Shown here piece by piece: positions 27,908 through 49,522 of a stretch of DNA of 64,000 nt. The notes beneath the pieces were generated by a model. The model searched no databases, was not told where the DNA came from, and was given only the letters and a program-made list of their open reading frames with translations. Source of the DNA: an uncultured Thiotrichaceae bacterium. GTDB taxonomy: Bacteria; Pseudomonadota; Gammaproteobacteria; SZUA-229. The first letter of the stretch is position 1. Each line of letters opens with the position of its first letter. A program made the translations under genes and the position numbers. The stretch lies in contig CAZYYW010000001.1 of the NCBI GenBank assembly GCA_964651445.1, forward strand, positions 173 to 64,172. Reading direction: 5' to 3'.

Positions 27908-27911
27908 ATTT

Positions 27912-31521: not shown

Positions 31522-31622
31522 GTACTTAACAAAGAAATGAAATAACATCGTCTATAACAACATTTCTTTATTAAATCGTTGATTTTTTTAGCTATTTTCA
31601 ACATTGCTATAGTAAATAAAAT

Positions 31623-31631
31623 TTATCCACA
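31623..31631 (+). promoter_or_regulatory. consensus DnaA box TTATCCACA inside an AT-rich stretch between the two iteron clusters
   Basis: Exact 9/9 match to the DnaA box consensus, flanked by an AT-rich tract (31561-31620). Confidence 0.5.
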
Positions 31632-31638
31632 ATCGTGC

Positions 31639-31744
31639 GTACTAAATACGGTTGAACAGTGTACTAATGTCGGTTTTATAGCGTACTAACGATGGTTTTA
31701 TTGCGTACTAAAAAGGGTTTAACAACGTACTAAACACGGTTTAA
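31639..31744. repeat. iteron cluster B: five 19-bp direct repeats at 21-22 bp (two helical turn) phasing; candidate oriV
   Basis: Copies begin at 31639, 31661, 31683, 31704 and 31726, all of the form (C/T)GTACTAAnnnnGGTTnnA. Confidence 0.85.
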
Positions 31745-31907
31745 CAACAATAAGTAACAACTTAAGCTATTGATTTTATTGGTTTTATTGAACAGCTTTA
31801 AACCTTTAGTCTTGTATAGTCTTTATTAAGTCTTTCTTTAGTCAAACACAGTCAGTGTTTTATAAAAGACTTATACATAAAAAACAAACCAAGGGTGAAA
31901 GCACTTT

Positions 31908-32798: not shown

Positions 32799-32822
32799 TA
32801 TTGCACCGAATATTTTATAGCG

Positions 32823-32941
32823 TATATTTATACATTCATAATATAGCGGAATAGTGAGTAAGTAAAGTCTTGTTATATCTTTAGTTTTTATGTTTTCAGA
32901 TTTATTAATTAAGTGAGTATGTTTATGAATGTATAAATATA
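32823..32941. repeat. perfect 18-bp inverted repeat pair (TATATTTATACATTCATA ... TATGAATGTATAAATATA) flanking 83 bp in a divergent promoter region
   Basis: Arms at 32823-32840 and 32924-32941 are exact reverse complements. Confidence 0.6.
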
Positions 32942-33055
32942 CATATTGTTACAATAGGGCATATCTCTTGCATGTTAGTATTAAGCTACACAACAAGAAC
33001 TTAAACTAGTTTGACTATTTGATAGTGAGAACAACACTAATCTGCGTAACCTTAT

Positions 33056-33547
33056 ATGTACCATATGATTAAAACTTTACTCGCTGGCTTGTTATTTATT
33101 GGATGTTCATCCTCGGTACTGGCAACAGAGAAAGAGGTTTGGCAGTGCAAGGATTTACATACTACAAATAACGAAATTATTGTTACCGCAACTGCGTTTA
33201 AAACCTCTAATCACGGTCTTATCTCGGTAGCAGGTACGGAACAAACGGCACACTATGAAGTCGCTGGTTTCAACCGGCAGTGGAAATTTGGTAGTAAATC
33301 TACGGATAATTCATTTAAGTATTTATTCAGAATAAACCCTAACGGTGTCGCACATTATTTTGATATCTCTGATACAAAGGAAGGGGAGAGTATTGAATCT
33401 GAGATGGTTTTAATTTGCAACCAAACAGGATCTGCCTGGTCAACTAATGTACGCAGTAAACCACGTGATTCACACCGAGATTCTGTGAACTCTATTAACG
33501 CTGTGCCCTGCTTACCAGGATTACTGGTAATAAACTATAGTGAATAA
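33056..33547 (+). CDS. hypothetical secreted protein (signal peptide)
   Basis: N-terminal hydrophobic signal LLAGLLFIGCSSSVLA. Confidence 0.4.
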   Translation: MYHMIKTLLAGLLFIGCSSSVLATEKEVWQCKDLHTTNNEIIVTATAFKTSNHGLISVAGTEQTAHYEVAGFNRQWKFGSKSTDNSFKYLFRINPNGVAHYFDISDTKEGESIESEMVLICNQTGSAWSTNVRSKPRDSHRDSVNSINAVPCLPGLLVINYSE

Positions 33548-33813
33548 TTAAAGGGCAACTTAAATATTTTTCTCTAGTTTTGAACCTACATGTTATAGTT
33601 TTTCCCTGCCATACAAATACTCTTTGTAGTGGAAGTCGTTACTAATTTAAAATAATTATGACACTAATTCGTACTTCTATAAATACGGACGATGATGTGA
33701 CTTACACAAATAATGACCGCTCTGTATTGCTGCATCACTCTACATTGCAGGTGTTGGCACAATCGTTATAGCGTTATATAATCGCGTTATGTAATTAGCA
33801 TAAAATCATATAA

Positions 33814-34107
33814 ATGAGAAATCAACCGCACAAGAAGATACGCATTGCATGGCTAATAAGCTTGTTCCTGCTTATTAGCCAATTTGGTGTAATCCTTCAC
33901 GCTACAGAACACCCGTTCCATGCTGATGATGCTTCGTGCCAACAATTTCTGTTTTGCGAAAAATCAGGCAACGCTCTTATTTCTCATGATTTACAGTCAT
34001 TTCCTCAGGCTAATCATGTATTGGTTATCAGCCAGACAGTTACCGCCTGCTTTTCCTCACCACAAACGGCATATTACGCCCGCGCCCCACCTTTTCGTAC
34101 TCACTAA
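33814..34107 (+). CDS. small secreted His/Cys-containing protein upstream of the metal-uptake genes
   Basis: Signal peptide; HATEHPFHADDASCQQFLFCE. Confidence 0.35.
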   Translation: MRNQPHKKIRIAWLISLFLLISQFGVILHATEHPFHADDASCQQFLFCEKSGNALISHDLQSFPQANHVLVISQTVTACFSSPQTAYYARAPPFRTH

Positions 34108-34169
34108 CATTAATCACTAAAAATTAGTTTTTATTAATTTATCGACAGCAACCATCTGGTGACTGTGGT

Positions 34170-35537
34170 GTGTCTTATCGTTTACGGAAAATTCTCATGC
34201 ATAAAACATTACTTATGACTGTAATATCAGTAGCATTATTTAATTCAAATCAGGCTTATGCCAACACTGAAGCAGCGGTATCCGAACAGAATTTCGATGC
34301 CCTTAAAAAGGCGTATGAAAAGCGCTTGGCAAATTTAGAAGAGCGACTATTAAAAACCGAACAAAATCAGCTTGTAGGCAGCGCTGTAACCGCACCAAAT
34401 AACTTTAACCCATCCATTAGTTTGATTCTTGATGGCCGTTTTTCCAGTTTTGACCAAGACCCATCACATTATGAATTACCCGGTTTTTCTTTAGGTGGTG
34501 AAGCAGGTTTAGACGAAAAGGGTTTTGCTGTTGGCCACACTGAACTCATAATGAGTGCCAATATAGATGATAAATTCTATGGCAAAATGACACTCGCGCT
34601 GGCAGAACATGATGGCGCAACCGAAGTAGAGCTGGAAGAAGCATTCATTCAAACATTGGGGTTGGGTAGTGGCTTGACATTAAAAGCAGGGCGCTTCTTT
34701 TCGGCAATCGGCTATTTAAATCAGCAGCATGCGCATTTCTGGGATTTTGCAGATGCGCCTTTGATATATCGAGGCCTGTTTGGAAATCAACTGATCGATG
34801 ACGGCCTGCAAGTGACCTGGATTGCCCCCACAGATATTTATCTACAGCTGGGCGCAGAAGCGTTGAGTGGAAACCGCTTCCCTGCAGGTGGTAGTCAGGA
34901 TGATATTGGTGCCTGGACAACATTTGTCGATATCGGTGGTGATATTGGCATTGAGCATAGCTGGCAATTAGGTTTTAGTCATTGGCAGGCAAATAGTATC
35001 AAAGATCGGCAAAGTGGTGGTCATGCACATGGCGGTGGAGCCACCACGGAGACACCTTCATTTAGTGGTGATAGCAAAGTCAATGCGCTTGATCTGGTGT
35101 ATAAATGGGCGCCTGATGGCAACACTGTAAATCAGGGATTCAAATTTCAATTTGAATATTTTGATCGCAAGGAAAACGGTGTGGTCGATATGCTTAACAG
35201 CGGTCCACCTGTAGAAACGAGTACTTATGATGGCCATCAAAAAGGTTGGTATGCACAGGCGATTTACAAATTTAGACCCCAATGGCAGGTAGGTTTACGC
35301 TACGACCAGTTGGACAGCAATAATAGCGGTTCTGATGCGGGTGTATTAGCCGAAGCGGGACTGGACAATGAGGGTCACACACCAAAACGCAGCAGTGTTA
35401 TGGTGGAGTGGTTGCCCAGTGAGTTCAGTCGGATACGTCTGCAATATAATCAGGATAAGTCCAGTGAACATACCGACAATCAACTATTTCTGCAATACAC
35501 CATGAGCCTTGGCAGTCACGGCGCGCACCAGTTCTAG
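34170..35537 (+). CDS. outer-membrane beta-barrel protein with an N-terminal periplasmic coiled coil (DcaP-like architecture)
   Basis: Signal peptide; coiled-coil LKKAYEKRLANLEERLLKTEQNQ; alternating beta strands; C-terminal aromatic residue (...AHQF). Confidence 0.6.
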   Translation: MSYRLRKILMHKTLLMTVISVALFNSNQAYANTEAAVSEQNFDALKKAYEKRLANLEERLLKTEQNQLVGSAVTAPNNFNPSISLILDGRFSSFDQDPSHYELPGFSLGGEAGLDEKGFAVGHTELIMSANIDDKFYGKMTLALAEHDGATEVELEEAFIQTLGLGSGLTLKAGRFFSAIGYLNQQHAHFWDFADAPLIYRGLFGNQLIDDGLQVTWIAPTDIYLQLGAEALSGNRFPAGGSQDDIGAWTTFVDIGGDIGIEHSWQLGFSHWQANSIKDRQSGGHAHGGGATTETPSFSGDSKVNALDLVYKWAPDGNTVNQGFKFQFEYFDRKENGVVDMLNSGPPVETSTYDGHQKGWYAQAIYKFRPQWQVGLRYDQLDSNNSGSDAGVLAEAGLDNEGHTPKRSSVMVEWLPSEFSRIRLQYNQDKSSEHTDNQLFLQYTMSLGSHGAHQF

Positions 35538-35549
35538 GAGGCGGTATTT

Positions 35550-36449
35550 ATGATTTATCAAGCTATAAAACTACTGTTCGCAATCTTGCTTGTATTGGTT
35601 TTTTCAAACACAGCTTTTGCCAAAATTAATGTCTTTGCTTGTGTACCAGAGTGGGCGGCACTAACACAGGAACTGGGTGGCGATGCGGTGAAGGTATTCA
35701 GTGCGACCACCGCTCGGCAAGACCCTCATCGCATTCAGGCGCGTCCGAGTTTGATTGCTAGAGTACGCAATGCAGATTTACTGGTATGCACCGGTGCAGA
35801 GCTGGAAGTAGGCTGGTTACCCTTGTTGTTGCGTAAGTCAGGAAATGGCAATATTTTGCACGGGCAGGTAGGGTATTTTATGGCTGCCGAGCAGGTTTCC
35901 TTACTGGAAAAACCGCAGGTCCTTGACCGCAGTCTGGGGCATATCCATGCCGCCGGAAATCCGCACATTCACCTAGACCCTCATCGCATCTTGCTAATAG
36001 CCGCTGCGCTAAGCAAGCGGCTGACACAACTGGATGCAAAAAACAGCGTGCTGTATCAAAAGAATCTGCACGATTTCACGCAGCGTTGGCAGCAATCCAT
36101 CACTCAATGGGAGCAGCGTGCTCAAAGCTTGCGTGGTAAACGGATTGTGGTTAGTCATAATAGTTGGGTGTATCTGGAACAATGGTTGGGTTTGCAAAGG
36201 GTTGCCACCTTGGAGCCTAAACCGGGGGTTCCACCGAGCAGTGCACACCTAGGCCGGGTGCTCAACACGTTAAAGAAAGAACCCGCGGTTATGATTTTAT
36301 ATGCCAGTTCTCAGAGTAATAAATCTGCCCACTGGTTGTCAAAAAAGACTGGGATTACAGCCGTCAGTCTGGCTTTTAGTCCTTCTGAAAATGAAACTTT
36401 AACGCAGTGGTTTGAACAAATTGTCAATCAACTACTAGAGTCTAAATAA
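35550..36449 (+). CDS. ZnuA/TroA-family periplasmic metal-binding protein
   Basis: Signal peptide; His-rich metal motifs LGHIHAAGNPHIHLDPH; cluster 9 fold-like. Confidence 0.7.
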   Translation: MIYQAIKLLFAILLVLVFSNTAFAKINVFACVPEWAALTQELGGDAVKVFSATTARQDPHRIQARPSLIARVRNADLLVCTGAELEVGWLPLLLRKSGNGNILHGQVGYFMAAEQVSLLEKPQVLDRSLGHIHAAGNPHIHLDPHRILLIAAALSKRLTQLDAKNSVLYQKNLHDFTQRWQQSITQWEQRAQSLRGKRIVVSHNSWVYLEQWLGLQRVATLEPKPGVPPSSAHLGRVLNTLKKEPAVMILYASSQSNKSAHWLSKKTGITAVSLAFSPSENETLTQWFEQIVNQLLESK

Positions 36450-37210
36450 TGAGTTTTGAGGGGCTGGAATTTTCTATCCTCGGACCGGCGTTTATTGCGG
36501 GTCTACTGGTACTGGCAAGCCATGTTCCATTGGGGCAGGAAGTGCTTAGGCGTGGCATTATTTTTATTGATCTGGCAATTGCCCAAGTTGCGGGGCTGGG
36601 AATTATCGCCGCCTATCGCTTCGGCTGGCAAACACATGGCTGGGAAGTGCAATTGGTGGCGGTAAGCAGTGCTTTACTCGCAGCGCTGGTATTGAGCTGG
36701 TTGGAGAAACACTACCAACAATTTCAAGAAGCACTTATCGGGGTCACCTTTATTTTGGCTGCAAGCGCCAGTGTATTATTGTTGGCGGATAACCCGCACG
36801 GTGGTGAATCGCTAAAAGACTTACTGGTGGGACAAATTCTGTGGATTACCTGGGATCAGCTGCTACCAACAGCCCTGGTAACAGGCTTCATTCTTCTTAT
36901 TTACCTCAACTTTCGACAACGCTTAAAACATCTTGGATTTTACCTGTTGTTTGCATTGGCAGTGACCAGCTCCGTGCAGTTGGTTGGCATTTATCTGGTT
37001 TTTGCCAGCCTGATTATTCCTGCGCTAGGCAGTGCAGGGCACAAAAAAGCATTGCTGGCGGGTTATATCATAGGGGGTTCTGGTTATGGATTGGGTTTGA
37101 TCGCGTCGTCGCTTCTGGATCTACCCAGTGGCGTTGTTATTGTCTGGAGCATTGCCATCGTTGCCTTACTTTTTAAACTCCTTACAAAAAGTCAAAGTAC
37201 CCAAACCTGA
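36449..37210 (+). CDS. ZnuB-like ABC-3 family metal permease
   Basis: About 8 TM segments; resembles the ZnuB N-terminus (PLGQEVLRRGIIFIDLAIAQVAGLG); start overlaps the znuA-like stop. Confidence 0.7.
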   Translation: MSFEGLEFSILGPAFIAGLLVLASHVPLGQEVLRRGIIFIDLAIAQVAGLGIIAAYRFGWQTHGWEVQLVAVSSALLAALVLSWLEKHYQQFQEALIGVTFILAASASVLLLADNPHGGESLKDLLVGQILWITWDQLLPTALVTGFILLIYLNFRQRLKHLGFYLLFALAVTSSVQLVGIYLVFASLIIPALGSAGHKKALLAGYIIGGSGYGLGLIASSLLDLPSGVVIVWSIAIVALLFKLLTKSQSTQT

Positions 37211-37433
37211 CAGGGAACGTCATATTATTTAACACAAAATAAACATAAAAACATGCACATGTGAAAAACAATCAATATTGACAACGGCTTAGTGTTGTAC
37301 GGTAGTAACGCTATACTTACTGTGTAAGATGGACATTTCCTTCGTTTTAATCAAATCCTGTGATGCCCGTTAAATTAGCCATCTATAGAGTTAGGTGTCA
37401 ATTATATGCCCTCATCATTAACGCGTGAACTGT

Positions 37434-38471
37434 TTACTCTGCATCATTATTAATTAGCGGAAAGTGCAAACTTCCAGCCGCTTTTCGCATTTCTTTTATT
37501 TCTCGACGATCATAATTGGCGGTTGTTTTAGGGTCACTATGGCCCGCTAAAGCCTGCGCCATTCTAAGATCACCGGTTTCTTCTAAAATGGTAGAGATAA
37601 ATGTCTTCCTGAAATCATGTGGTGAAATCTCAGCTATACCTGCCTCAGATTGGCGTTTTTTAACGACATTGTAGATTGCCTGATCGGATAGTCGACCGGC
37701 TTGAATTTTTCCATTTTTAAGAACGCGGTAGAAGAGGGCACCATCATGATCACCGCGAAGTTCTAACCACTGTTTAACCGCTATCACTGTGCCATCATCT
37801 AAAAACAACATGCGCTCTTTATTGCCTTTACCGATCACGCTGGCTTCCTTTAATTCAAGATCAATGTCCTCTACATTTAGATCTGCCACTTCAGAACGAC
37901 GCAAACCACCGATGTACATCAAGCCAAAAATAGCCAGGTCTCTATAGGCAGCTGGTGACCGTTTTTCTGGGCTGTCATCCTTTTTGTTTTTAACTTTTAA
38001 GAAATCGTTTAAGCACGCATCGACCAATGCCTTAATCTCTCCTTGACTCATCATCCGTCCTGTTGGCAAGCGAACACCTGCAACCATTTTCACCAACATA
38101 AGACGTTGGTAATCATCCGCTGACATTAATTTCATCGCCATCGCAGCCCTCACGGTGCCACGAACGGCTGAAATAATAGCGTTAATAGTGGTATGAGCGT
38201 ATTTTTGTTGCTGTAACACGCCAATAAGCGTTTGCAGGTGTTCATACTGAATCGAAGCCCAGGGTGTATGTTGATAACCTTCATAATCAAACAAGATGGC
38301 TATTTTATTCATATGACTTTTTACCATACGCTTGGTCGCTTCAGATTTTCCTGACAGATAAGTATCGACCGGGTTGGCGTATATAGAAACTTCACCGTGT
38401 AAAGTCGGTAATGCAGGAATCTCTTTTGAGCTGCTTTTTATTGAGGTGAATCTAGAATCACGACGCGCCAT
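37434..38471 (-). CDS. tyrosine site-specific recombinase / integrase
   Basis: C-terminal catalytic region HDFRKTF...LAGHSDPKTTANYD (R, H-x-x-R, Y). Confidence 0.85.
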   Translation of the reverse strand: MARRDSRFTSIKSSSKEIPALPTLHGEVSIYANPVDTYLSGKSEATKRMVKSHMNKIAILFDYEGYQHTPWASIQYEHLQTLIGVLQQQKYAHTTINAIISAVRGTVRAAMAMKLMSADDYQRLMLVKMVAGVRLPTGRMMSQGEIKALVDACLNDFLKVKNKKDDSPEKRSPAAYRDLAIFGLMYIGGLRRSEVADLNVEDIDLELKEASVIGKGNKERMLFLDDGTVIAVKQWLELRGDHDGALFYRVLKNGKIQAGRLSDQAIYNVVKKRQSEAGIAEISPHDFRKTFISTILEETGDLRMAQALAGHSDPKTTANYDRREIKEMRKAAGSLHFPLINNDAE

Positions 38472-38497
38472 TTAATCACTCTTTGTTATTATTCAGG

Positions 38498-39598
38498 TTA
38501 GTCGATGAGCAACGAATAACGGGTGCTGCGACCACCACCTGGTTCTTTTTGTAATACACCGCGCTGCATTAGATCGAGGATATCGCGATAAGCGGTATCT
38601 TGAGAACACTTTGTCATCTTTGCCCATTTTGAGGTACTTAGCTTGCCTTCAAAATCATCCAGTAATCGATTTAAAACTTTTATCTGTCGCTGGTTAAAAG
38701 GTACTTTAGCAAAGCGCTCCCAGAAACGAGCCTTTGCCAGAACATCGCTTAAGGTGTCTTGTGTACCCTCGATTGCGCGTAATAGGCAATTTAAAAACCA
38801 CTGTTGCCAGCGACTGACATCAAGCTCACCTTTTTGTGTCCATTCCAACACATTGTAATAATCTTTTTGTTGAAGACGGATTTGTGCTGACATACTATAA
38901 AAACGTTGGCCTGTTTTTTCTGAGCGAGCGAGAGCCATATCTGCTATCGCGCGAGCAATACGACCATTGCCATCGTCAAACGGGTGAATAGTAACAAACC
39001 ATAGATGAGCCAGACCCGCTATGAGCAGTGGGTCGATGTCTCCAGGATGCTCAAACCAGTGCAGAAATTCTTCTATCTCATTAGAGACACTTTTGGCTGC
39101 TGGCGCTTCGTAATGCACTTTTTCATGCCCAATTGCACCTGAAACCACCTGCATTGGACCTGTAGTGTCATCTCGCCATTGCCCTACACGGATTTTATTC
39201 ATGCCACTTCTGCCCGTTGGAAATAGTGCAGCATGCCAGCCGAATAACCGCTCTTCAGTCAGTGCATCACAATATCTCCCTGTTGCATCAAGCATCATCT
39301 CAACCACACCCTCAACATTCCGCTCAGCAGAGACAAGTCCCTCTATATTCATACCGAGTCTGCGCGCGATTGATGAGCGTACTTGCTCTGGTTGAAGGTT
39401 TTCGCCTTCAATTTCACTTGTCTTAACAACATCTTCCGTCAGGATGCGGAGATGCGCTTCGTTCGATAATTCAAATCCGAGTGCCTCCATTCTGCCCAGC
39501 AGCCGACCTTGTTCACGTGACACTTGTGTCAATAGTTTTGTTATACGGCTGTCATCCCAGGTAAAAGTCGGCCAATCAGATTTCTGCCATAAATACAT
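38498..39598 (-). CDS. Fic/DOC family protein (adenylyltransferase-type FIC motif) with a C-terminal winged-helix
   Basis: FIC motif HPFDDGNGRIARA. Confidence 0.85.
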   Translation of the reverse strand: MYLWQKSDWPTFTWDDSRITKLLTQVSREQGRLLGRMEALGFELSNEAHLRILTEDVVKTSEIEGENLQPEQVRSSIARRLGMNIEGLVSAERNVEGVVEMMLDATGRYCDALTEERLFGWHAALFPTGRSGMNKIRVGQWRDDTTGPMQVVSGAIGHEKVHYEAPAAKSVSNEIEEFLHWFEHPGDIDPLLIAGLAHLWFVTIHPFDDGNGRIARAIADMALARSEKTGQRFYSMSAQIRLQQKDYYNVLEWTQKGELDVSRWQQWFLNCLLRAIEGTQDTLSDVLAKARFWERFAKVPFNQRQIKVLNRLLDDFEGKLSTSKWAKMTKCSQDTAYRDILDLMQRGVLQKEPGGGRSTRYSLLID

Positions 39599-39879
39599 TA
39601 TAATCTCCGCATGTTACGCGGATATAATGACTGATAATCACCGCATACGCAAGAGTATTCTCATTATTACTTGCGGAGAATAACTGCCGTAATCTCCGCA
39701 TAAGCCGTACAACATATATTAACATTACTTTTGATAATGTATATTATCATAAGTAATAATACAAGAACAATATCTTCGTCAGCAGGTTAATGAAGGCACG
39801 TAAGAAAAATATCTAACTTTTACAGAAGATACTAGCGTATTCATAGAACACTCTACAATATAGAGTAATACAAGCAAAC

Positions 39880-41586
39880 TTACGCGCTGATTTCGCCTTG
39901 AAACACAGTACAACGATTTCGCCCAGAATGTTTGCTCTGATAAAGTGCCTGATCCGCTCTTTTGAGAACAATTTGCTTGGTATCATCGGCCGTGAACTCA
40001 GCAAGGCCGACAGAAGCGGTCACGGTTATTTGCTCACCCTGATATTTGAAATTACAGCTTAGTAATGTTTCTCTAAGTTTGTTATTAAATGCTAATGCTT
40101 TATCGATAGGAGTATCCGGCATTAATAGGACAAATTCTTCACCGCCAATTCTGGCGAACATATCTGTATTGCGTATTCTTTCCTGGATGACATTGGCGAA
40201 AAGTTTTAAAACCCGGTCGCCCACATCATGCCCATAGGTATCATTAACATTTTTAAAGTGATCTATGTCCCACATCGCGAGTGTTAGTGGTGATTGTAAG
40301 CGTTTGTAGCGACTGGCTTCGACGGCAATTCTTTCCTCATAAGCCAGCCGGTTGTATACGCCTGTTAAAGAGTCGCGTAATAATTGGCTTTTACTTATTT
40401 CAAGCTCAGTTTTTAATCTTTCTGATTCATTTTGAGTGGAGCTAAGTTCTGCAATAATTTGCGTATACCCTTGCATGGATAGTTTTTCTTTTTCCTGTGC
40501 TGCATCTTTATTATCTTCAACCTGTTTCCTAATATCCTTTAAGTGTACAGATATGTCTTTTTTAAGATCAACGATATTACTTGAAGAAGATACTTTATCC
40601 TGTATATAACCAACACTGGCATTCACTGTTTCTTCTAAATTAGTAGAGCGATTGACTGATTCTTCCTGGTTTAAGAGTGTCAATTCCATGTAGTTTTTAA
40701 TCTCAGATAACTGCTTACTAATTTTAAGAATAAACTCTTGCAAGTCCATATTTTCCAATTGAACTGAATTAACGAAATTATTGACAAGGTCAAGTAATTC
40801 AGAAAATAGATTTTTACGATATTCATTACTATCTACAGGATTAACAAGTATTTTTAAAAGTGCTATCTGTTGCGATTTCATTTTTGTAGGCAGTGCAAGT
40901 TGATTAACCATATCAGTAAGATGTGAATAGAAAGATACATTGTGCGATTGTTTATTTTCGATATTAAGGTTGTTATCGCCAGCTTTAATTGTCGTTATGT
41001 ATTTTGACAATTCAATGACAATATCCTGCATAACCTGTGTTGCGCTTTGGCTATTCCGATTATATTGAAATCCCGTGCTAGTAGTAACGTCATTAATAAA
41101 ACCATTAATAGTTTTATTAATGACGTCTTCATCAGCATGAGTGCTTTTAGTTAATGAATTATTTATGATGGTAATTATTTCCGCACCGGTCTGCTTTTCA
41201 TCGCGATCGTTGTTTACCAGTGTATCGATTATGACCTTGCAATCGTCAGAACAATCGACTTCCTTCATGCCTTGCTTAAGTGCAGAACAGATGACGGAAT
41301 TTTCTGATAAACCTTTCTGAAAGTCAGAATGATTGGTTAAAACAAATAGTTTGTCTAATTGCGAATCCAAGATTTCTAAATTAATATTTTTCTGCGTCGA
41401 TGAGGTAATGCTTTTTAGTAATAAATTGACCTCGTTATCATGATTGTTAAAGCCTGCAGCAAGCCTGATAACCGATTTTTTCAATAATTTTCTGGTGGTA
41501 TTTAATTGCGCTTGTGAAGTACTCAACAACTTGACGGATTTCTCGTAAATATTCTTGATTTCATTTTCTGGTGAATAAAGACTCAT
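39880..41586 (-). CDS. GGDEF diguanylate cyclase with a long N-terminal coiled-coil/helical domain (HsbD-like position)
   Basis: RIGGEEF active site; I-site RNTD; about 380-aa helical N-terminal region without TM segments. Confidence 0.85.
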   Translation of the reverse strand: MSLYSPENEIKNIYEKSVKLLSTSQAQLNTTRKLLKKSVIRLAAGFNNHDNEVNLLLKSITSSTQKNINLEILDSQLDKLFVLTNHSDFQKGLSENSVICSALKQGMKEVDCSDDCKVIIDTLVNNDRDEKQTGAEIITIINNSLTKSTHADEDVINKTINGFINDVTTSTGFQYNRNSQSATQVMQDIVIELSKYITTIKAGDNNLNIENKQSHNVSFYSHLTDMVNQLALPTKMKSQQIALLKILVNPVDSNEYRKNLFSELLDLVNNFVNSVQLENMDLQEFILKISKQLSEIKNYMELTLLNQEESVNRSTNLEETVNASVGYIQDKVSSSSNIVDLKKDISVHLKDIRKQVEDNKDAAQEKEKLSMQGYTQIIAELSSTQNESERLKTELEISKSQLLRDSLTGVYNRLAYEERIAVEASRYKRLQSPLTLAMWDIDHFKNVNDTYGHDVGDRVLKLFANVIQERIRNTDMFARIGGEEFVLLMPDTPIDKALAFNNKLRETLLSCNFKYQGEQITVTASVGLAEFTADDTKQIVLKRADQALYQSKHSGRNRCTVFQGEISA

Positions 41587-41588
41587 AG

Positions 41589-42497
41589 TTACCTACCATT
41601 AGGGATGGTTACACACACTTTGTTTCCGCTGCCAATATATTTTACTTCTTTAAAACTGATCAAATTTGCCAGCGCAATACCTCTACCATGACTATCGAAT
41701 GCTCTACTTGGGCTAATTTCCATATACTGGTGCCAATCAAAGCCTTCTCCTTGATCTATTATCAAAATATTAATTTTTTTGTCACTACGACTAAATTCAA
41801 TAGTCACGTGCTTGTCTCTATTTATCGGCAAGTTTATTCTACGCTTAATCTCATTGTCCCATTCACCAGCGGCATTTAATTTTGATTTCTCAGCATATCC
41901 AATCGCTAGATTTCCATGTTCAACTGCATTAACAATTAATTCAGTTAATCCAAGAATAACATTGTCTGATTCAGGGCAAGCATTTGCTAGCAAAGCGGCA
42001 AGATTTCGACCTTCACTTAATGTCTTAAAGCAAAATATTCCGTGATCCATCATTTGTAATGTTTGAGCAGATTGTTTTAGACTTTCCTGCATATCCATGT
42101 ACTGCTGGTAGTCACGGATAGCTGTCGTTGTAATAGCAATTAGTGTTTGTTGGTCGTACGGCTTGGATATGTAGTAATGCGCACCGGCTGTTAGCCCTTC
42201 TAGCATCGGTTCTTTTCCTGCTTTCGCGGTTTGCATAATAACCGGAATCTTATTTGTTTTATCATCTGATTTTATTGCTAATAGTACGTCCATTCCATTT
42301 ACGCCTGGCATCATCCAGTCCAATAGAACAGTACAAAACTTATTAGGCGATTCCTGCAAAAGCAATAAGGCTTTCTCACCCGAGCCTACACAAACAGTTT
42401 CTATATCAATTTCACTAAGATATTCTTGAATGATTTCGAGATTAAATTCTTCGTCATCAACAACTAAAACAACCGGTTTTATATCATCAATAATCAT
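41589..42497 (-). CDS. receiver domain fused to a GHKL anti-sigma-factor-type serine kinase (RsbW/SpoIIAB-like)
   Basis: Canonical REC (VLVVDDEEFN, LLDWMMPGVNG, TAKAG, SKP); N-box ELIVNAVEHGN; G1 IIDQGEGFD; G2 GRGIALA. Confidence 0.75.
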   Translation of the reverse strand: MIIDDIKPVVLVVDDEEFNLEIIQEYLSEIDIETVCVGSGEKALLLLQESPNKFCTVLLDWMMPGVNGMDVLLAIKSDDKTNKIPVIMQTAKAGKEPMLEGLTAGAHYYISKPYDQQTLIAITTTAIRDYQQYMDMQESLKQSAQTLQMMDHGIFCFKTLSEGRNLAALLANACPESDNVILGLTELIVNAVEHGNLAIGYAEKSKLNAAGEWDNEIKRRINLPINRDKHVTIEFSRSDKKINILIIDQGEGFDWHQYMEISPSRAFDSHGRGIALANLISFKEVKYIGSGNKVCVTIPNGR

Positions 42498-44162
42498 CTA
42501 TATGCCTATCTGTTTGTGACTACAAACAATAGCCTCCAGACAATTCCCTGTGTTGTTTTCGAGAGTTAGTTCGTTAAGCTTGTAAGACAAGGAATATTCC
42601 TTGTCTTTTTTGTCATTGCTTTTCTCATCTAGTAGGCAATATGCCAAATCATTAAGATTTATTTCTTTGCCGCTATCCTCCATTTGAATGAGCAGAGAAG
42701 GAAAACCATTATGGCTAACCTTCTTTATTCCAATCTTTACGTAATGCATACTATTAGAGGTGTATTTTTCATGATTTTTTGTCCACGAACGTTCTACAAT
42801 AACGTTTTCATACAGCGCAGACATGATGTTAGCTAATGTCTTAGTTGTTAAATGCAAGCCTGAAATTTTTTGTATTTCATCAATAACGATAGGAACTGGA
42901 TTTAGTTCATGCAAGCTGCGCCCTCCTAGTTCCATGTACCAACACCAGTTACTGTTATACGATATTTTTTTATATTGATGGTTGTCAACTTCTTTACTGA
43001 GCATCAAACTATTTGTACAAGGTATACAAGCAAGCGTGACATCGTCAACTGGTTTTATATCACCACAAAAATCATTAAAACAAGCAACGATTTCCGTAAA
43101 AACAGACTTATCTTCAACAGTCTCATTCAAACAACTTTCTAATCTATTTTCACCAAACATATCATTATTTTTATTAAGGGCTTCAGTCAACCCATCTGTA
43201 AACAAAATTAATTGGTCACCAGGCGTAATATTGAATGATTCCATTCTATAGTTGTTTGACAATGTATCGATAATGCCAAGTGGTAAGTGTGAGGATTTTA
43301 TTTTATGTTTAATATTTCCATTACCAATACCTCTTAAGTAAATATCAGGCATGCCACCATTCCATATAGTCACTTGCTTAACATCACTTGAAATTCTTAA
43401 TACGCTGCATGCCAGAAACATACTGGTAGGTAAAAGAGACAGGAGTTTGCTGTTTATGCTCTCAAGAATGCAGGCCAGATCAAAGCCTTTTTCGGTCATT
43501 GCGCTAAATACATCGGCTACGGGTAACGCACCAATTGCTGCTGATAATCCATGGCCAGTAAAATCGGCTAGTAAGATATTCAGGCTACCGTCAGGATGGC
43601 GGGCTATTAAAAATAGATCACCACTAAAAATTTCTTTCGAGCTACTTAAAAAATGTATTTCATCGAAGTGGATGCATCTTTGACTTATCGCGTCTGATAA
43701 TATTCTCTTTGCGAGAATCTGCTCGTTTATTGAATTATTGTAGAGAACTGTTAATTCACCGATTTTGTCTAGCGATGATATTCTTGCGTTTATGGCAGCA
43801 GAAGTAACGGGTTTAAATAAAATATCATCTGAACCAGCGGTGGCACAAATGGCTAAGCGCTTACTGTCATCTGCTGAAGCAATGATAATGATAGGAATAT
43901 ATGATTCACCAATTTTGATTCGCAAGGAGCGGACAAGATCTTCACATTTAGCGTCATCAAAATCTACATCAATCAGTATATATGATATCTCCCACTCCTG
44001 TAGATAGCGAAAAACATGCTCTGCAGTACTTGCCCGCAAAGAGATGATACCTGAATGCTCTAGTGTGGTTTTAATACAAGCATTTATTTGTTGTGAACAG
44101 CTAACCACAAGCGCATATCTACATTCTTTTGTATCTTGATCATAGATAGGTAGAACATTCAA
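42498..44162 (-). CDS. HsbR-like protein: atypical receiver, PP2C (SpoIIE/RsbU) phosphatase, C-terminal GHKL kinase-like domain
   Basis: PP2C motifs GDLFLIARHPDG...LADFTGHGLSAA and FTDGLTEA; C-terminal N-box-like ALYENVIVERS and G1-like IQMEDSGKEI; N-terminal REC lacks the acidic pair (VVSCSQQ). Confidence 0.75.
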   Translation of the reverse strand: MNVLPIYDQDTKECRYALVVSCSQQINACIKTTLEHSGIISLRASTAEHVFRYLQEWEISYILIDVDFDDAKCEDLVRSLRIKIGESYIPIIIIASADDSKRLAICATAGSDDILFKPVTSAAINARISSLDKIGELTVLYNNSINEQILAKRILSDAISQRCIHFDEIHFLSSSKEIFSGDLFLIARHPDGSLNILLADFTGHGLSAAIGALPVADVFSAMTEKGFDLACILESINSKLLSLLPTSMFLACSVLRISSDVKQVTIWNGGMPDIYLRGIGNGNIKHKIKSSHLPLGIIDTLSNNYRMESFNITPGDQLILFTDGLTEALNKNNDMFGENRLESCLNETVEDKSVFTEIVACFNDFCGDIKPVDDVTLACIPCTNSLMLSKEVDNHQYKKISYNSNWCWYMELGGRSLHELNPVPIVIDEIQKISGLHLTTKTLANIMSALYENVIVERSWTKNHEKYTSNSMHYVKIGIKKVSHNGFPSLLIQMEDSGKEINLNDLAYCLLDEKSNDKKDKEYSLSYKLNELTLENNTGNCLEAIVCSHKQIGI

Positions 44163-44518
44163 TGCCCAACCCCGACTTTATCCCTCGTTTCAGTATTGAT
44201 TCCACAAGTATAATTGATGGTAAATAACTGCTCAAAATTAGCTACTTTCAAAATGGTATCAACTTGTTTGCTGGGGCGTTCTATAAATACTGCGCCACCA
44301 TGACACTTTGCATGCTCACGCAGCAACAGCAACATGCCCAATGCAGAACTGTCCATATAATTAGTATCGCTTAAATCAACGTAGTAGGACATGCTGTCTT
44401 GGCCTGTAATTCGACGATAGCTATCCCTGAATGCTTGGGACACTTTATAATCAAATCGTCCACTTATATTGATGTGTACTTTTTTTCCGTCGCTAGACAC
44501 TTCTTGACTTACAGACAT
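44159..44518 (-). CDS. STAS-domain anti-sigma-factor antagonist (HsbA/RsbV-like)
   Basis: 119 aa; STAS fold with conserved phospho-serine region DSSALGMLLLL; 4-nt overlap with the downstream gene. Confidence 0.8.
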   Translation of the reverse strand: MSVSQEVSSDGKKVHINISGRFDYKVSQAFRDSYRRITGQDSMSYYVDLSDTNYMDSSALGMLLLLREHAKCHGGAVFIERPSKQVDTILKVANFEQLFTINYTCGINTETRDKVGVGH

Positions 44519-44751
44519 AATACAGGCTCCCAGTTTCTTTTAGAAATAACACTACTACTGAAACTATCGACCATCTGTGGATAATGTTTAGTGGTTTTTA
44601 TAAAATCCAGGTTTTTAAATCATACTGCCGGACAATGTTGCTTTCGCAATATCAACAAAGCAGCTTCATTGCGACATCCGTTAGACGACAGTGAGATAGA
44701 TAAAGCCGTGCCATACTCGGCGTATCGAACTAACTCAAAGTAAGTAGGTAG

Positions 44752-46662
44752 TCAGGAGACCAATTTCAAAGCATCCGGCTGTTGATCAATTTTATTCATT
44801 TTCATTAATAAATCAAAAAAAGCTTCAGATGGAACAGGCTTACTAAAGAAATACCCCTGTATATATTCACATTGCTCTTTTATTAGAAAATCAAGCTGGC
44901 CTTTACTCTCAACGCCTTCAGACACAACCGACATTCCAAGGCTTTTTGCCAGTGCTAAAATGGCTTTAACAAGTCTCTCATCCTGTTTTGATACCAGTAC
45001 ATTATTAATGTAGCTGCGGTCGATTTTTATTGAATCAAAGTTATAACGTTGCAAATAAGAAAGTGATGCATAACCCGTACCAAAATCATCTATTAATAAT
45101 TTAATACCCATTATTTCAAGTAAGGCCATTGTCTCAAGACTGCTTTTTGTTTCTTTCATTAAAACGCCTTCTGTCAGTTCAAGCTGTATCGCATCAGAGT
45201 TTAGATCATTTGCCTTTAACGCCCGCTTCAGGGTCTTCACCAATGACGATTCCGCCTGAAACTGGCGCGCTGAAACATTGACGGTAATACATAGGTCATG
45301 CCAACCATAATCATGCCACTGCTTTATTTGCTCACAGGCTGTCTCAATTACCCATTCACCAATGGGGACAATTAAACCCGTTTCTTCTGCAATCGGTATA
45401 AAGTAATCGGGCGTTATCATGCCAAGATTTTCGCAGTTCCACCTTAATAGTGCCTCTGCTTTTACGATAACACCCGTTTTTGAGTCTATGATTGGTTGGT
45501 AATTCACAGTAAATTCATTCTTTTTCAGCGCATGTCGTAACTGTGTTTCAACATCCATGCGCATTTTTGCTTTCACTGTCATTTCTGGTGAGTAAAAACA
45601 GTAGGTATTTTTACCATCGTGCTTTGAGCGATACATGGCAATATCAGCGTGCCGCATTAGCTTGTTAATATCATCACCATCTTTTGGGTAAATAGCAAAA
45701 CCTATACTGGGTGAGATATTCAATTCCTGACCTTCAATAACGATAGGTTTTGAAAATATATCCAGTATACGCTCGCCAATTTGTCTAATGACATTTTCAC
45801 GCAACTGTCCATTGTCTGGTTTCTTATCATCCTCCAGTATCAGTAAAAACTCATCACCGCCTAAACGTGCAACGGTATCACTTTCACGCGCACATTCAGT
45901 TAATCTGCGTGCAGCTTCCCGAAGTAATTCATCTCCCACTGCATGACCAAAGGTATCATTGACATATTTAAAATTATCCAAATCCAAAAAAGCCAAACAG
46001 GGCTGTAAATTATTTCTTTTCGCCTTTGATAATGTCTGGTTTAATCGATCTGTTGCCAAACTTCGATTAGGAAGTTCGGTCAATTCATCGTAGTTCGCCT
46101 GTTTCTGTAATTGACCTTCAGCGAGCAATCTAATTTCGATTTCTTCCTTTAGCTTTCTATTGGTTACGTTTAACTCAGCAGTGCGCTGTTTAATTTGTTT
46201 TTCAAGACTATTTTGAGCCAAGCGAAGATACTCCGCCGCTTGTTTTTGCATTAGTTGATTACTTAACCGCGCCCATAGAACGTCAAAATCAACCGGTCGG
46301 GTAATGTAATCATTGGCACCAAAATCTAGCGCTTGAACAATTTCTGTTGAGGAACCACGAGATGTAATCAGTACAATCGGTAACTGCAATTTTGAGTATG
46401 TTTTACGAAGTGTTTTTAAAACAGCAATACCATCGAGACCTGGCATAGCGACATCCAGCAATACCAAATCTGGAGGACTATTGTAAACAATATCAATCGC
46501 CTCTTCACCATCTCTAGCTTCAGTCACCTGTATATTTCCCAGCTCAAGTATTTCTCTTATGGCCGAGCGGACGTCATTGCTGTCGTCAACAATGAGTACA
46601 TTTAATATTTTCCCCGATGAGATAACTTCCTGTATTTCAGGAACATAATCTATATCACTCAT
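44752..46662 (-). CDS. response regulator with REC-GGDEF-EAL domains (c-di-GMP phosphodiesterase/cyclase)
   Basis: REC (LVLLDVAMPGLDG); GGDEF with I-site RESD; EAL motifs EALLRW and DDFGTGYASL. Confidence 0.9.
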   Translation of the reverse strand: MSDIDYVPEIQEVISSGKILNVLIVDDSNDVRSAIREILELGNIQVTEARDGEEAIDIVYNSPPDLVLLDVAMPGLDGIAVLKTLRKTYSKLQLPIVLITSRGSSTEIVQALDFGANDYITRPVDFDVLWARLSNQLMQKQAAEYLRLAQNSLEKQIKQRTAELNVTNRKLKEEIEIRLLAEGQLQKQANYDELTELPNRSLATDRLNQTLSKAKRNNLQPCLAFLDLDNFKYVNDTFGHAVGDELLREAARRLTECARESDTVARLGGDEFLLILEDDKKPDNGQLRENVIRQIGERILDIFSKPIVIEGQELNISPSIGFAIYPKDGDDINKLMRHADIAMYRSKHDGKNTYCFYSPEMTVKAKMRMDVETQLRHALKKNEFTVNYQPIIDSKTGVIVKAEALLRWNCENLGMITPDYFIPIAEETGLIVPIGEWVIETACEQIKQWHDYGWHDLCITVNVSARQFQAESSLVKTLKRALKANDLNSDAIQLELTEGVLMKETKSSLETMALLEIMGIKLLIDDFGTGYASLSYLQRYNFDSIKIDRSYINNVLVSKQDERLVKAILALAKSLGMSVVSEGVESKGQLDFLIKEQCEYIQGYFFSKPVPSEAFFDLLMKMNKIDQQPDALKLVS

Positions 46663-47118
46663 TAGCCTATCCTCTTGAGGGTCAATCTTGCAAGTTGATC
46701 AATAATCATTAATGACACGTCTTTGACACTGGTCATCCCCTCGTTTTCTGCGTAGGTGAAATCTACGAATACCATTACTATAGTTTGATACATCACTGTG
46801 GTAAGCCAGTTAAAATGCTTTTAATGCCATTTTCGACAGTGCTTTTTCAGTGATTAACACCCTATTTTAAATCGCCATGTCGTATCTATCGGCTGATATA
46901 ACAATAACTTTACCCGTACTGCTGTGGTGACAAATTACCGACTATAAAAATAAAAAATGCAAACTTCATGCCAATTTTTAAATTTAAAAAAGAAAAATAA
47001 ATGTGACACTCAATAAGGCCTAGTTGAGAGCTAAAGAACAACCTTGTAGACAAAATTTATAGAAATGTATGACTTCAGATAAATGCTTGAATAGGCATTT
47101 CAAGGCTGTGCCAGCATT

Positions 47119-49335
47119 TTAGTTCGTTTTACTGATACTGTTAATTAGTGTGTTTAATGTGTCTTCTACCGTTGAGTAATACTGTATTACCTGCGCCACT
47201 TCAGCAGCATTCATTTCATTGTGTTCACAACCACGTTCAACGCTACGGCACATATCTGCCAACTTAAACGCCCCCATATTTTCACTTGATGACTTTAAGG
47301 TGTGTGATAGCTTTCGAATCTGCTCAATATCGGATCGGCTTAACGCATCACCCAGGTCGTTCATTAAGTTTGATGTTTGCTCGATATAAATACTAATCAT
47401 GTTATAGAGCAAGTTTGAATGGTTTTTTTTCTGTCTTTGGTAATAACCAGAAATAACATCATAATCCAGCACCGACCAGTCGCATGTAATATCGTCCAGT
47501 GTTACTTCAGGCTGAACAATACTGACATTACGCTGCGGCACTAAATCCGGTGATTGCCTTGTAGCCAGCCATTTTATCAAAATCCTATTCAAATCAAGTA
47601 TGCTAAATGGCTTACTGAGAAAATCATTCATGCCACTCGCGATACATTTTTCGCGCGCACCGGAAATCGCATGTGCGGTAAGTGCGATGATCGGTACAGC
47701 GACATGCTTGGTTTCTTGCTCGTGCAAGCGAATTTGTTGTGTGGCTGTAAAACCATCCATTTGAGGCATCTCGCAATCCATAAAAATTAATATATGTTTT
47801 TCAATATTAAAAATCTCAACGGCCTGTAGTCCGTTATGAGCAATTTCCACATCCAGACCCATGGAGTTGAGCATATCAACAGCTACTTCACAATTGACTA
47901 GATTGTCCTCTACTAGCAAAATTTTCTTTCCATCTGTAATTTTGAATTGTATTGCTTCTACGTCTACGATCTCATCACTCGGTACAATAAGGTCTTGATT
48001 TTTGGCTGCGGGTATCGATATCCAAAAACAGCAACCCTCACCTTTGCGACATTCTGCCCCTATATTTCCATTCATTAGCTCGATAAGCTGCTTGCACAAA
48101 CTTAAACCGATGCCGACACCATCAATACCAAGCTCCGCAGCACTTAATCTTGAGAAAGGTTTGAAAAGCTCATCGATAGCATCACTGTTAACTCCATACC
48201 CAGTATCAATTATAGATAAACGAATGCGGTCATTTTCAACTGATTCAACTGCTATAGTAACTCGACCGCCTTTCTTGTTATATTTGACAGCATTATCCAA
48301 AAGATTAACGATAATTTGTTTTAGTCGCGTTCTATCTGCCAGCACATAAACTTCGTTATGTACAGTATCTCCCGAGAAAGTAATATTACGAGCAACCGCC
48401 AGTTCTTCGACCATGCTTATAGAATCATGAATAATTTCGTATAAGCTAGTCACCTCTAGCACTATATCCATCTCACCGGTCTCTATTCGCGATAAATCCA
48501 ACACATCATTTACAATTAACAACAAATGTTTTCCAGCATCACCTACTTTTACAGCCCGTGAACGTTGTTTGTCTGTAAGCGGCGTATGCTTATCCAAAAG
48601 TTGTAACTCTGTCAGCCCAGAAATAACATTTAATGGTGTTCGTAGCTCGTGACTCATGCGTGACAGAAACTGTGATTTAGTCATATTGGCTGCATTAGCT
48701 TTTTCTCGTTGCAGCAACAACTCATTTTCACGGTCGATGGCAACTTCCTGCAATCGCAATGTGTCATAGGTGTAATTGTAAAAAACGGTTGCCGATCGCA
48801 GTATATAGATTAGGTAAATAGTAAAGGCTATCGAAATAGCAAACGCATTTGGAAAATAGGAGAAATTGACGGCGGCTATTAGCGGTGCCAACACAAGAAT
48901 AGTAAAACTATAAGTCGGTAATTTACGATAACCCATAGTTGTGTGTGCCACGCCAGTAGTACCAAGACAGGCAATAATAAATAATAATTGGCCTTCAAAA
49001 TCCAATATGGGAAACAGCCAGAGTCCCATGCTAGCCCATAACAGACCGGTTAAAACAATACCAGCGTAGTAGATATATTCAAATTTTTTATAATCAATCG
49101 AATGGTTTTTCTTATGAGAAAAAAACAACTTACCAAAATAAAGACGAATAAGCAGCACTAGCGAAAATATATATACCCAGCCTTCAAGCGACGACCAACT
49201 CAGGGAGTAAGATAAGAAACCAAACGTTAGAAACACAACAAGGGCGGTAGCAACAACTGCAAATGCCTGATTACTGTACAGCAGATCAATCTGTTTTCTG
49301 AAAACTCGTAGCGCAACCGTAGTATCAGGTTCCAT
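47119..49335 (-). CDS. hybrid sensor histidine kinase: 6-TM sensor, HisKA, HATPase, REC, Hpt (RpfC-like architecture)
   Basis: H-box MSHELRTPLNVISG; REC (IFMDCEMPQMDG); C-terminal Hpt (KLSHTLKSSSENMGA). Confidence 0.9.
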   Translation of the reverse strand: MEPDTTVALRVFRKQIDLLYSNQAFAVVATALVVFLTFGFLSYSLSWSSLEGWVYIFSLVLLIRLYFGKLFFSHKKNHSIDYKKFEYIYYAGIVLTGLLWASMGLWLFPILDFEGQLLFIIACLGTTGVAHTTMGYRKLPTYSFTILVLAPLIAAVNFSYFPNAFAISIAFTIYLIYILRSATVFYNYTYDTLRLQEVAIDRENELLLQREKANAANMTKSQFLSRMSHELRTPLNVISGLTELQLLDKHTPLTDKQRSRAVKVGDAGKHLLLIVNDVLDLSRIETGEMDIVLEVTSLYEIIHDSISMVEELAVARNITFSGDTVHNEVYVLADRTRLKQIIVNLLDNAVKYNKKGGRVTIAVESVENDRIRLSIIDTGYGVNSDAIDELFKPFSRLSAAELGIDGVGIGLSLCKQLIELMNGNIGAECRKGEGCCFWISIPAAKNQDLIVPSDEIVDVEAIQFKITDGKKILLVEDNLVNCEVAVDMLNSMGLDVEIAHNGLQAVEIFNIEKHILIFMDCEMPQMDGFTATQQIRLHEQETKHVAVPIIALTAHAISGAREKCIASGMNDFLSKPFSILDLNRILIKWLATRQSPDLVPQRNVSIVQPEVTLDDITCDWSVLDYDVISGYYQRQKKNHSNLLYNMISIYIEQTSNLMNDLGDALSRSDIEQIRKLSHTLKSSSENMGAFKLADMCRSVERGCEHNEMNAAEVAQVIQYYSTVEDTLNTLINSISKTN

Positions 49336-49522
49336 TTTTTATCCCACACCCATATTATATTTCTGAAAATGAAACGAGCAATGTATTATATACTCAAGTA
49401 AATCATACTATAGCTGTCATCGCCACATGATTATGTTTCTTTAGTCGAAAATGCTCATTCGTAAAATAATGACAATGCTAGCCATAATGCATTGCCCATT
49501 CTAAACCTCACAGGCTTTTATT

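Follow-up and report, generated by a model that had tools for sequence, protein, structure and literature searches.

In the HptB-HsbR-HsbA system of Pseudomonas aeruginosa and Pseudomonas putida, as in the related CrsR-CrsA pair of Shewanella oneidensis, the gene for a STAS protein lies directly before a gene that joins a receiver (REC), a PP2C-type serine phosphatase and an RsbW-like kinase, an Hpt phosphorelay is encoded nearby, and the module sits in a flagellar neighbourhood near flgM. In model Gammaproteobacteria, HsbR/CrsR-type modules govern RpoS and the decision to leave the motile state for a biofilm, the coordination of their three activities is still debated, and the precedents for HsbR, HsbA and the cyclase HsbD, and for RpoS, are in print (PMC5085249; PMC6482189). 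HsbD (PA3343) is a protein of 389 amino acids with six transmembrane helices and a GGDEF domain (PMC5085249), and a receiver fused to a Bergerat anti-sigma domain is found in LvrC of Leptospira, published in 2026 (PMC13269768; structure 9QIH, deposited as 'SenB'). In this article, I discuss a four-gene operon (39880-44518, minus strand) with the same STAS-first gene order, located in a 64,000-nucleotide stretch of DNA from an uncultured Thiotrichaceae bacterium (GenBank assembly GCA_964651445.1, contig CAZYYW010000001.1, positions 173 to 64,172), which I call the window and to whose numbering all coordinates refer. The reading I favour, at a probability of roughly 0.55, is that this operon encodes a partner-switching module of HsbA/HsbR descent in which the roles of HsbR appear, from comparison of the sequences, to have been divided between two proteins.

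The comparison draws on a scan of species-representative genomes that gave 79 distinct loci, 13 of them window-like (L005-L016, L031) and 66 classical HsbR-type; four further loci of the window's clade (L001-L004) came from contig look-ups, and an independent scan anchored on the separate REC-kinase described below added 8 metagenome loci with the same operon and REC-kinases 51-65% identical. The window-like loci all come from metagenome-assembled genomes of uncultured Gammaproteobacteria or Thiotrichaceae. A first-pass annotation of the window had proposed four coupled genes here, and the open reading frame (ORF) listing bears them out as real genes, all on the minus strand: a STAS gene (44518-44159; 119 amino acids, ATG start) followed by genes for proteins of 554 (44162-42498, TTG start), 302 (42497-41589) and 568 amino acids (41586-39880). 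The junctions are, in order, a 4-nucleotide overlap (TTGA), 0 nucleotides and 2 nucleotides. A ribosome-binding site (GGGAG) precedes the STAS gene, whose stop codon overlaps the start of the 554-residue protein's gene, an arrangement shared by nearly all HsbR-type loci, and the TTG start of the second gene is supported because its homologues share a conserved N-terminus, M-N-x-[LI]. The G+C fraction of the operon is 0.353-0.366 (40001-44000), compared with about 0.39-0.46 across most of the window. The domains assigned at first pass (STAS, PP2C, REC, RsbW-like kinase and GGDEF) are upheld by Pfam, with some corrections.

The second, 554-residue protein is, as had been proposed, related to HsbR, and indeed is a full-length homologue of it, with about 30% identity and an alignment that runs continuously from end to end. 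A database search with it returned a family of about 570 amino acids, 42-59% identical over the full length, as well as forms of about 400 amino acids that lack the C-terminal domain, and more distant homologues (29-38% identical) carrying PF13581, one of which bears the JGI name 'HptB-dependent secretion and biofilm response regulator'. Its N-terminal domain (residues 17-128; 43779-44114, minus) is a pseudo-receiver with a weak Pfam match to Response_reg (8.4e-08, 32.8 bits against a cutoff of 30.2), and profile-profile comparison by hhalign aligns it to the HsbR receiver with 99.9% probability. The first-pass observation that this receiver, with its motif VVSCSQQ, lacks the acidic pocket holds: S21 and C22 stand in place of the acidic pair and A95 in place of the threonine, D65 and K117 are kept, and the loss is shared by the whole clade. 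While HsbR-type receivers carry [DE]D, D, T and K in 66/66 cases, none of 15 clade sequences has DD or ED as its acidic pair (S, E or G at the first position; S, D, N, C, R, H or A at the second), the phosphoacceptor position is E in seven, D in six and otherwise V or Y, and the threonine position is mostly A; in the subclade of L088 the acidic residues survive and the phosphoacceptor is replaced by K. Since neither the Mg-binding acidic pair nor the threonine is left, the receiver of the PP2C protein is probably no longer phosphorylatable, and the glutamate that is frequent at the phosphoacceptor position across the clade fits a locked, phosphomimetic state.

A conserved helical linker (residues 129-175; 43638-43778, minus) joins the pseudo-receiver to a SpoIIE-type PP2C serine phosphatase (residues 176-385; 43008-43637, minus; Pfam SpoIIE, PF07228, 5.4e-36), whose metal-binding residues D182, D200, D323 and D373/D374 are invariant in the alignment. 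The phosphatase is the best-conserved part of the protein: within the clade, pairwise identity reaches 62% in PP2C and 58% in the linker, compared with 38% in the receiver and 33% in the C-terminal domain, whereas the corresponding values in the HsbR-type proteins are 44% (PP2C), 34% (linker), 51% (receiver) and 42% (C-terminal domain), and by this measure the receiver and C-terminal domain of the clade are under relaxed constraint relative to PP2C. The C-terminal domain (residues 405-554; 42501-42950, minus) is a degenerate RsbW-type GHKL (Bergerat-fold) domain. The GHKL assignment of the first pass thus fared unevenly: residues 386-554 have no Pfam match, a failure that the first pass had itself named as grounds for refutation, and the domain is nevertheless recovered by hhalign against the kinase/anti-sigma domain of HsbR (99.9% probability, E 1.3e-33) and against the kinase domain of the 302-residue protein (90.9%), by a fold search that matches RsbW and SpoIIAB (from an AlphaFold2 model with a predicted local distance difference test score, pLDDT, of only 60 and a disordered lid), and by 4-5 of 13 close relatives that still match HATPase_c_2 or HATPase_c; its fold and ancestry are therefore those of an RsbW-type GHKL domain. 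It keeps N453, D496 and G498 and has lost the HG of the N-box and the GxG of the G2 box; E500 takes the place of the second glycine of the G1 box, and KEYSLSY that of the GRGxxL found in HsbR-type proteins. None of these three lost elements (N-box HG, second G1 glycine, G2 GxG) varies among the 66 HsbR-type proteins.

The third gene supplies what the second has lost. It encodes an REC-RsbW-like serine kinase, or anti-sigma-type response regulator, of 302 amino acids (41589-42497, minus), in which Pfam finds a receiver at residues 10-122 (42132-42470; Response_reg, PF00072, 1.5e-21) and a kinase domain at residues ~170-300 (41598-41990; HATPase_c_2, PF13581, 4.1e-08), and these matches together with complete motifs substantiate the separate REC-fused kinase of the first-pass annotation. 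Fourteen orthologues share 55-81% identity with the window protein; across them D14, D15, D60 and K112 of the receiver are invariant and T90 nearly so, and E186, N190, H194, G195, D248, G250, G252, G271 and G273 of the kinase domain are all invariant, so by its residues the protein is a canonical receiver joined to a motif-complete RsbW-type kinase. The closest solved structure is PDB 9QIH, matched over the whole length (E 1.2e-14); its deposited name was discarded as a guide, the selenoneine and Shigella proteins called SenB being unrelated, and the PDB code leads to LvrC instead. The kinase function is thus present as a separate REC-fused protein, as first described, and the accompanying claim that it had been duplicated is probably wrong, with the GHKL domain of the PP2C protein decayed here and deleted in sister loci. 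Because that domain has decayed while the separate kinase keeps every motif, the pattern of residues suggests that the kinase was probably relocated or replaced.

These changes can be followed across the loci. The conserved order is a divergently transcribed hybrid histidine kinase (HK), an HK-REC-Hpt or REC-Hpt gene, a REC-GGDEF-EAL gene, and then the genes for STAS, PP2C protein, REC-kinase and coiled-coil GGDEF protein, and since the same order recurs in about 24 independent loci, the arrangement lies far beyond chance. A separate REC-kinase is present in 14/14 genome-derived clade loci whose contig extends beyond the PP2C gene, and the 66 HsbR-type loci, mostly from Pseudomonas, are STAS and REC-PP2C-kinase pairs that keep every motif and have neither a separate REC-kinase nor a similar cyclase within 10 kb. 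All loci that have the separate REC-kinase encode a PP2C protein with a degenerate receiver. The GHKL domain shows a graded decay, from near-canonical in L088, through loss of G2 in L005-L007, to loss of both G1 and G2 in the window, L004 and L001, and in L009-L014 its deletion is clean, the gene ending at a stop directly ahead of the domain and the operon being otherwise kept. An apparent 743-residue fusion of PP2C protein and REC-kinase in L012 was rejected, a stop codon at 11170 parting the two genes.

The first gene is the best-conserved component of the operon (67-94% identity across the genome-derived clade loci), and its description as a STAS antagonist of HsbA type is confirmed by 42-50% identity to Pseudomonas HsbA. 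The protein is a single STAS domain (Pfam STAS, PF01740, 8.7e-13; TIGR00377, 56.5 bits; both above cutoff) in which D56, S57 and S58 are invariant, the phosphorylatable Ser57 lying within the invariant motif YxDSSALGMLLLL. The clade proteins carry in addition a C-terminal tail of about 17 amino acids (NYTxGINTE...GxGH; residues 102-119, 44162-44215), and no such tail was present in the aligned sequences of Pseudomonas HsbA or other HsbR-type STAS proteins. By analogy with the Hsb system, where unphosphorylated HsbA binds FlgM and phosphorylated HsbA binds HsbD, I infer that the STAS protein may bind the cyclase or FlgM. A further STAS gene is present in some clade members, upstream of the REC-GGDEF-EAL gene and read from the other strand (L014 5863-6168, L015 277-582, L031 6661-6963, L088 1966-2358), and its product is 51-75% identical to the window STAS protein where measured (L014, L015, L031).

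The last gene was annotated as a coiled-coil GGDEF cyclase, and that much is sound: the protein is soluble, with no transmembrane-like segment (maximum 19-residue Kyte-Doolittle score 0.84), and consists of a coiled-coil N-terminal region (residues 1-395; 40402-41586, minus) and a GGDEF domain (residues 404-558; 39913-40377, minus; Pfam PF00990, 1.5e-42) with GGEEF at 481-485 and an RxxD I-site at R472-x-x-D475, at the canonical five-residue spacing, both nearly invariant in the alignment of 10 cyclase orthologues. The coil region evolves fast, yet has conserved islands; a word-indexed search with it matched only 4 proteins, and its score for DGCcoil is 19.4 bits, below cutoff, while orthologues carry DGCcoil (PF20975). 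The further proposal that the cyclase is HsbD-like fails, as the protein has 568 amino acids, is soluble and has a 395-residue coil, whereas HsbD is a 389-residue protein with six transmembrane helices; the window cyclase is therefore analogous, not orthologous, to HsbD. Its best named family is SiaD (NF038266), with 177.7 bits against a cutoff of 290. The cyclase gene directly follows that of the REC-kinase in 10 of 14 genome-derived loci, and the cyclase, or at least its coil region, was seen in seven of the eight metagenome loci.

Upstream of the STAS gene lies a motif of the sigma-28 (FliA) type, CTAAA-N15-GTCGATA (44565-44591, minus; 3' end 46 nucleotides before the STAS ATG). The FliA consensus, TAAA-N15-GCCGATAA, can be set beside the window motif, which reads TAAA-N15-GTCGATAG at 46 nucleotides from that ATG. 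In nine aligned STAS upstream regions the positions of CTAA-N16-GnCGATA are invariant (9/9), and CTAA-N16-GNCGATA has a single exact match in the 64 kb window; allowing one mismatch raises the count to 13, where 2.7 are expected and 0/100 shuffles reach 13. The motif is found upstream of STAS in 12/14 clade loci as against 0/60 HsbR-type loci, and zero occurrences were found in 2.5 Mb of HsbR-type locus sequence. One-mismatch sigma-28-like motifs also occur on the minus strand between genes at 46887-46913, 49418-49444, 57172-57198, 58184-58210 and 1955-1981, where they precede, in that order, the REC-GGDEF-EAL gene, the HK-Hpt gene, a 295-amino-acid ORF, an HDOD gene and the gene after fliD. 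Those before REC-GGDEF-EAL and HK-Hpt were considered as marks of further regulon members and rejected, being conserved in 0/18 and 0/6 relatives, respectively, and because the neighbours' motifs are not conserved, the four genes form their own predicted FliA-dependent unit. Scans of 39400-47200 for sigma-70 promoters (30 matches vs 27.5 in shuffles) and terminators (6 vs 5.4) stayed at chance level, and no terminator is claimed.

Put together as a mechanism, the operon would be transcribed by FliA late in flagellar assembly, and the neighbouring hybrid kinases would deliver phosphate through Hpt to the REC-kinase receiver, on the model of the pairs HptB-HsbR and LvrB-LvrC. The phosphorylated receiver would then switch the kinase activity or the partner binding of the REC-kinase on or off, the REC-kinase would phosphorylate STAS on Ser57, and the PP2C protein would dephosphorylate it, either constitutively or under the control of a partner. 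Coiled-coil linkers are known to control PP2C dimers (PMC12143880), and the pseudo-receiver and linker may serve as a dimerising, activating module as in RsbU and RssB-type phosphatases, with the decayed GHKL domain a docking site at most. The phosphorylation state of STAS would pick its partner, the likeliest being the co-operonic cyclase, which would set the level of cyclic di-GMP (c-di-GMP), as for HsbA-HsbD and SiaC-SiaD, and FlgM or a sigma factor may be a further partner. With the receiver placed on the kinase rather than the phosphatase, the phosphorelay input may act in the opposite sense from that in HsbR. The most complete version of this scheme, a FliA-driven late-flagellar switch in which HsbR has been split into a phosphorylation-blind phosphatase scaffold and a phosphorelay-gated kinase, with inverted input and STAS toggling between FlgM and the cyclase, is unlikely to hold in every part. 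If it did, c-di-GMP would be set within a single feedback loop both by an external signal and by the completion of the flagellum, read out as FlgM export and FliA activity, and the graded domain decay would be a natural record of a multidomain response regulator dismantled after its functions were replaced.

Several points weigh against the reading of a divided HsbR with the cyclase as its target. One species cluster (L001, L002, L003, L008) keeps STAS, PP2C protein and REC-kinase without the cyclase, which therefore cannot be the sole target of STAS; the cyclase is unrelated to HsbD outside GGDEF and scores below the cutoff for SiaD, so that its link to STAS rests on operon position and analogy. 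The D65 and K117 kept in the window pseudo-receiver may still permit phosphorylation, the decayed GHKL domain might still bind nucleotide through N453, D496 and G498, the AlphaFold2 model behind its fold search has a pLDDT of only 60 and a disordered lid, and the sigma-28 assignment is a conserved consensus match, that is, a predicted promoter.

The retained residues invite two other interpretations of the decayed protein. Its receiver might still accept phosphate, in an atypical, metal-independent or low-affinity manner, so that the phosphatase would be controlled by the phosphorelay as in HsbR, and besides D65 and K117 an Hpt domain encoded two genes upstream would suit this; yet both Mg-coordinating acidic residues (S21, C22) and the threonine (A95) are gone, the phosphoacceptor position is E, V, Y or K across the clade, which argues that the residue is not under selection, and the E found in 7/15 sequences, a classical phosphomimetic, fits a locked state, so that I consider this the least probable of the explanations weighed here. 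Hardly more probable is a true duplication, in which both GHKL domains would be active STAS kinases giving two independently regulated inputs. In its favour, Asn453 (N-box), Asp496 (G1) and Gly498 persist in the window, and more basal clade members such as L088 still have an N-box and a G1 box, with GSG standing in for G2. Against two working kinases, the window domain is missing the G2 GxG, the N-box HG and the second G1 glycine, which all 66 HsbR-type proteins possess; it draws no Pfam HATPase match and evolves fastest (33% identity), and its clean deletion in L009-L014 leaves the rest of the operon in place.

More serious, though still doubtful, is the idea that the output is a sigma factor, with the REC-kinase or the decayed GHKL domain sequestering FliA or RpoS, STAS as antagonist, and the cyclase merely co-expressed and independently regulated. 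The closest structure, LvrC, is read by its authors as an anti-sigma factor under receiver control, HsbR and CrsR bind RpoS through their C-terminal domains, fliA lies within the same flagellar supercluster, and the trio of STAS, PP2C protein and REC-kinase persists without the cyclase in L001 and L008; however, no sigma factor gene is found in or beside the operon in the approximately 24 loci, and in most of them the cyclase is tightly coupled to the REC-kinase (by a 2-nucleotide gap in the window). This alternative is also compatible with a divided HsbR acting on the cyclase, as HsbA/HsbR does both.

The operon sits between fliA (59218-59973) and flgM (17020-17331) in a window that is itself a flagellar supercluster. 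This position and the conserved sigma-28 motif lend indirect support to the first-pass proposal that STAS may switch between FlgM and the cyclase. From the fliA end the map runs through flhA, flhF, fleN, fliA, two HDOD genes, the 295-amino-acid ORF and an OmpR-type regulator to motAB and a sigma-54 activator, then to the signalling cluster with the operon, an insertion of about 12.7 kb, and c-di-GMP and kinase genes with a SPOR-domain gene, and it reaches at the flgM end flgA, flgM, flgN, flgK and fliD among other flagellar genes. The REC-GGDEF-EAL protein (44752-46662, minus; Pfam) is always encoded directly upstream of the STAS operon in the clade, with 58-89% identity wherever the locus extends far enough, and its gene is probably a separate transcription unit. 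Beyond it lies a membrane hybrid histidine kinase with REC and Hpt (47119-49335, minus; Pfam HisKA, HATPase_c, REC and Hpt, the Hpt domain at residues 640-738; synteny) and about six transmembrane-like segments, which is a probable phosphorelay input and is replaced by a REC-Hpt protein in some relatives. A soluble, divergently encoded REC-HK-REC hybrid kinase (49523-51967, plus; NCBIfam PRK13557/CckA-like matches) is likewise kept beside the cluster, its relatives being 51-80% identical over full or near-full length.

Some features of the surroundings are recorded here as observations. The sigma-54 activator (52212-53327; 371 amino acids, AAA+ and a Fis-type helix-turn-helix), whose gene separates motB from that of the hybrid kinase, lacks both a receiver and a FleQ domain at its N-terminus. 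The block at 26913-39598, about 12.7 kb, which parts the cyclase from HDOD and HK-GGDEF-EAL genes that directly follow the REC-kinase in L001 and L008, has the appearance of a plasmid remnant or an integrated mobile element: it holds genes for ParA-like and two ParB-like proteins, a weak RepA-like ORF, hypothetical ORFs, a porin-like ORF, ZnuA, a ZnuB-like (ABC-3 family) permease, a tyrosine integrase (37434-38471) and a Fic/DUF4172 protein (38498-39598), and its G+C fraction drops to 0.355-0.37 near 30-34 kb. Beside flgA, at 19297-26852, is an extra dense cluster of c-di-GMP and two-component genes, encoding a GGDEF protein of 310 amino acids, an HK of 467, a HisKA-HATPase-Hpt-REC-REC-GGDEF-EAL protein of 1283 and an HDOD protein, all of which, except the 310-residue GGDEF protein, also flank the REC-kinase in L001 and L008.

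Placed beside the described cyclases and switches, the operon resembles each in part. With HsbD the cyclase shares an active-type GGDEF domain with RxxD I-site and genetic linkage to an Hsb-type switch, and differs in its 568 residues, its solubility, its DGCcoil-type N-terminus of 395 residues and its place in the same operon as the switch, the HsbD gene being separated from hsbR by hptB and recQ. The SiaABCD system of P. aeruginosa is set apart by the sub-cutoff SiaD score of the window cyclase; SiaA is a membrane HAMP-PP2C protein, SiaC is not known as a Pfam STAS protein, and the Sia system is not known to include receivers. In Vibrio fischeri, SypE combines kinase, receiver and phosphatase in one polypeptide, and its output is Syp polysaccharide and no cyclase. 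A receiver-controlled pair of RsbW-like kinase and PP2C phosphatase there acts on the STAS protein SypA to control biofilm formation (PMC10120452). LvrC has, like the 302-residue protein, a canonical N-terminal receiver and an RsbW-type Bergerat domain, the same length and an alignment over 302 amino acids, but it is distant in sequence (57 bits over the full length), and its proposed role is that of an anti-sigma factor with input from LvrB, in a paper whose searched text does not mention a STAS protein (PMC13269768), while the window protein stands inside a full STAS/PP2C operon.

The window REC-kinase belongs to a wider family that includes members in three-gene modules found at L119, L129, L130, L136, L137, L143, L144 and L164 in soil, freshwater and sediment metagenomes (for example L143 4185-9601), which encode a sensor HK, a REC-HATPase_c_2 protein 40-50% identical to the window REC-kinase and a receiver-containing REC-PAS-PP2C phosphatase, and of which no description was found in the literature searched. 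They differ in their reversed gene order, in the PAS domain and in a phosphatase receiver that is strong in Pfam (1.9e-23 to 3.9e-28), and an adjacent STAS gene or cyclase was usually not detected; they are a possible source of the recruited kinase.

Since the clade consists of uncultured marine and sediment bacteria, the immediate impact of these findings is conceptual rather than practical. The clade offers a natural separation of function, with phosphatase and kinase apart and a predicted working receiver only on the kinase, and its decaying redundant domains let the contributions of kinase, phosphatase and receiver be probed without engineering. It also indicates that REC-RsbW proteins, of which LvrC provided the first structure, can occur inside a complete STAS/PP2C/cyclase operon, and the sigma-28 motif would put both the switch and a c-di-GMP cyclase in the late flagellar regulon, as a plausible assembly-coupled motility brake. 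Compared with HsbR and its loci, then, the window has a degenerate receiver, a C-terminal kinase domain that is degenerate or absent across the clade, a separate REC-kinase gene after the PP2C gene, a co-operonic cyclase, a STAS protein with a C-terminal tail that HsbA lacks, and a sigma-28-type motif before the STAS gene where P. putida hsbA has a sigma-70-type motif. The operon is an uncharacterised variant of a known system, found so far in uncultured Gammaproteobacteria only and indicating no new mechanism, and what is new here is the conserved sigma-28 promoter motif upstream of its STAS gene.

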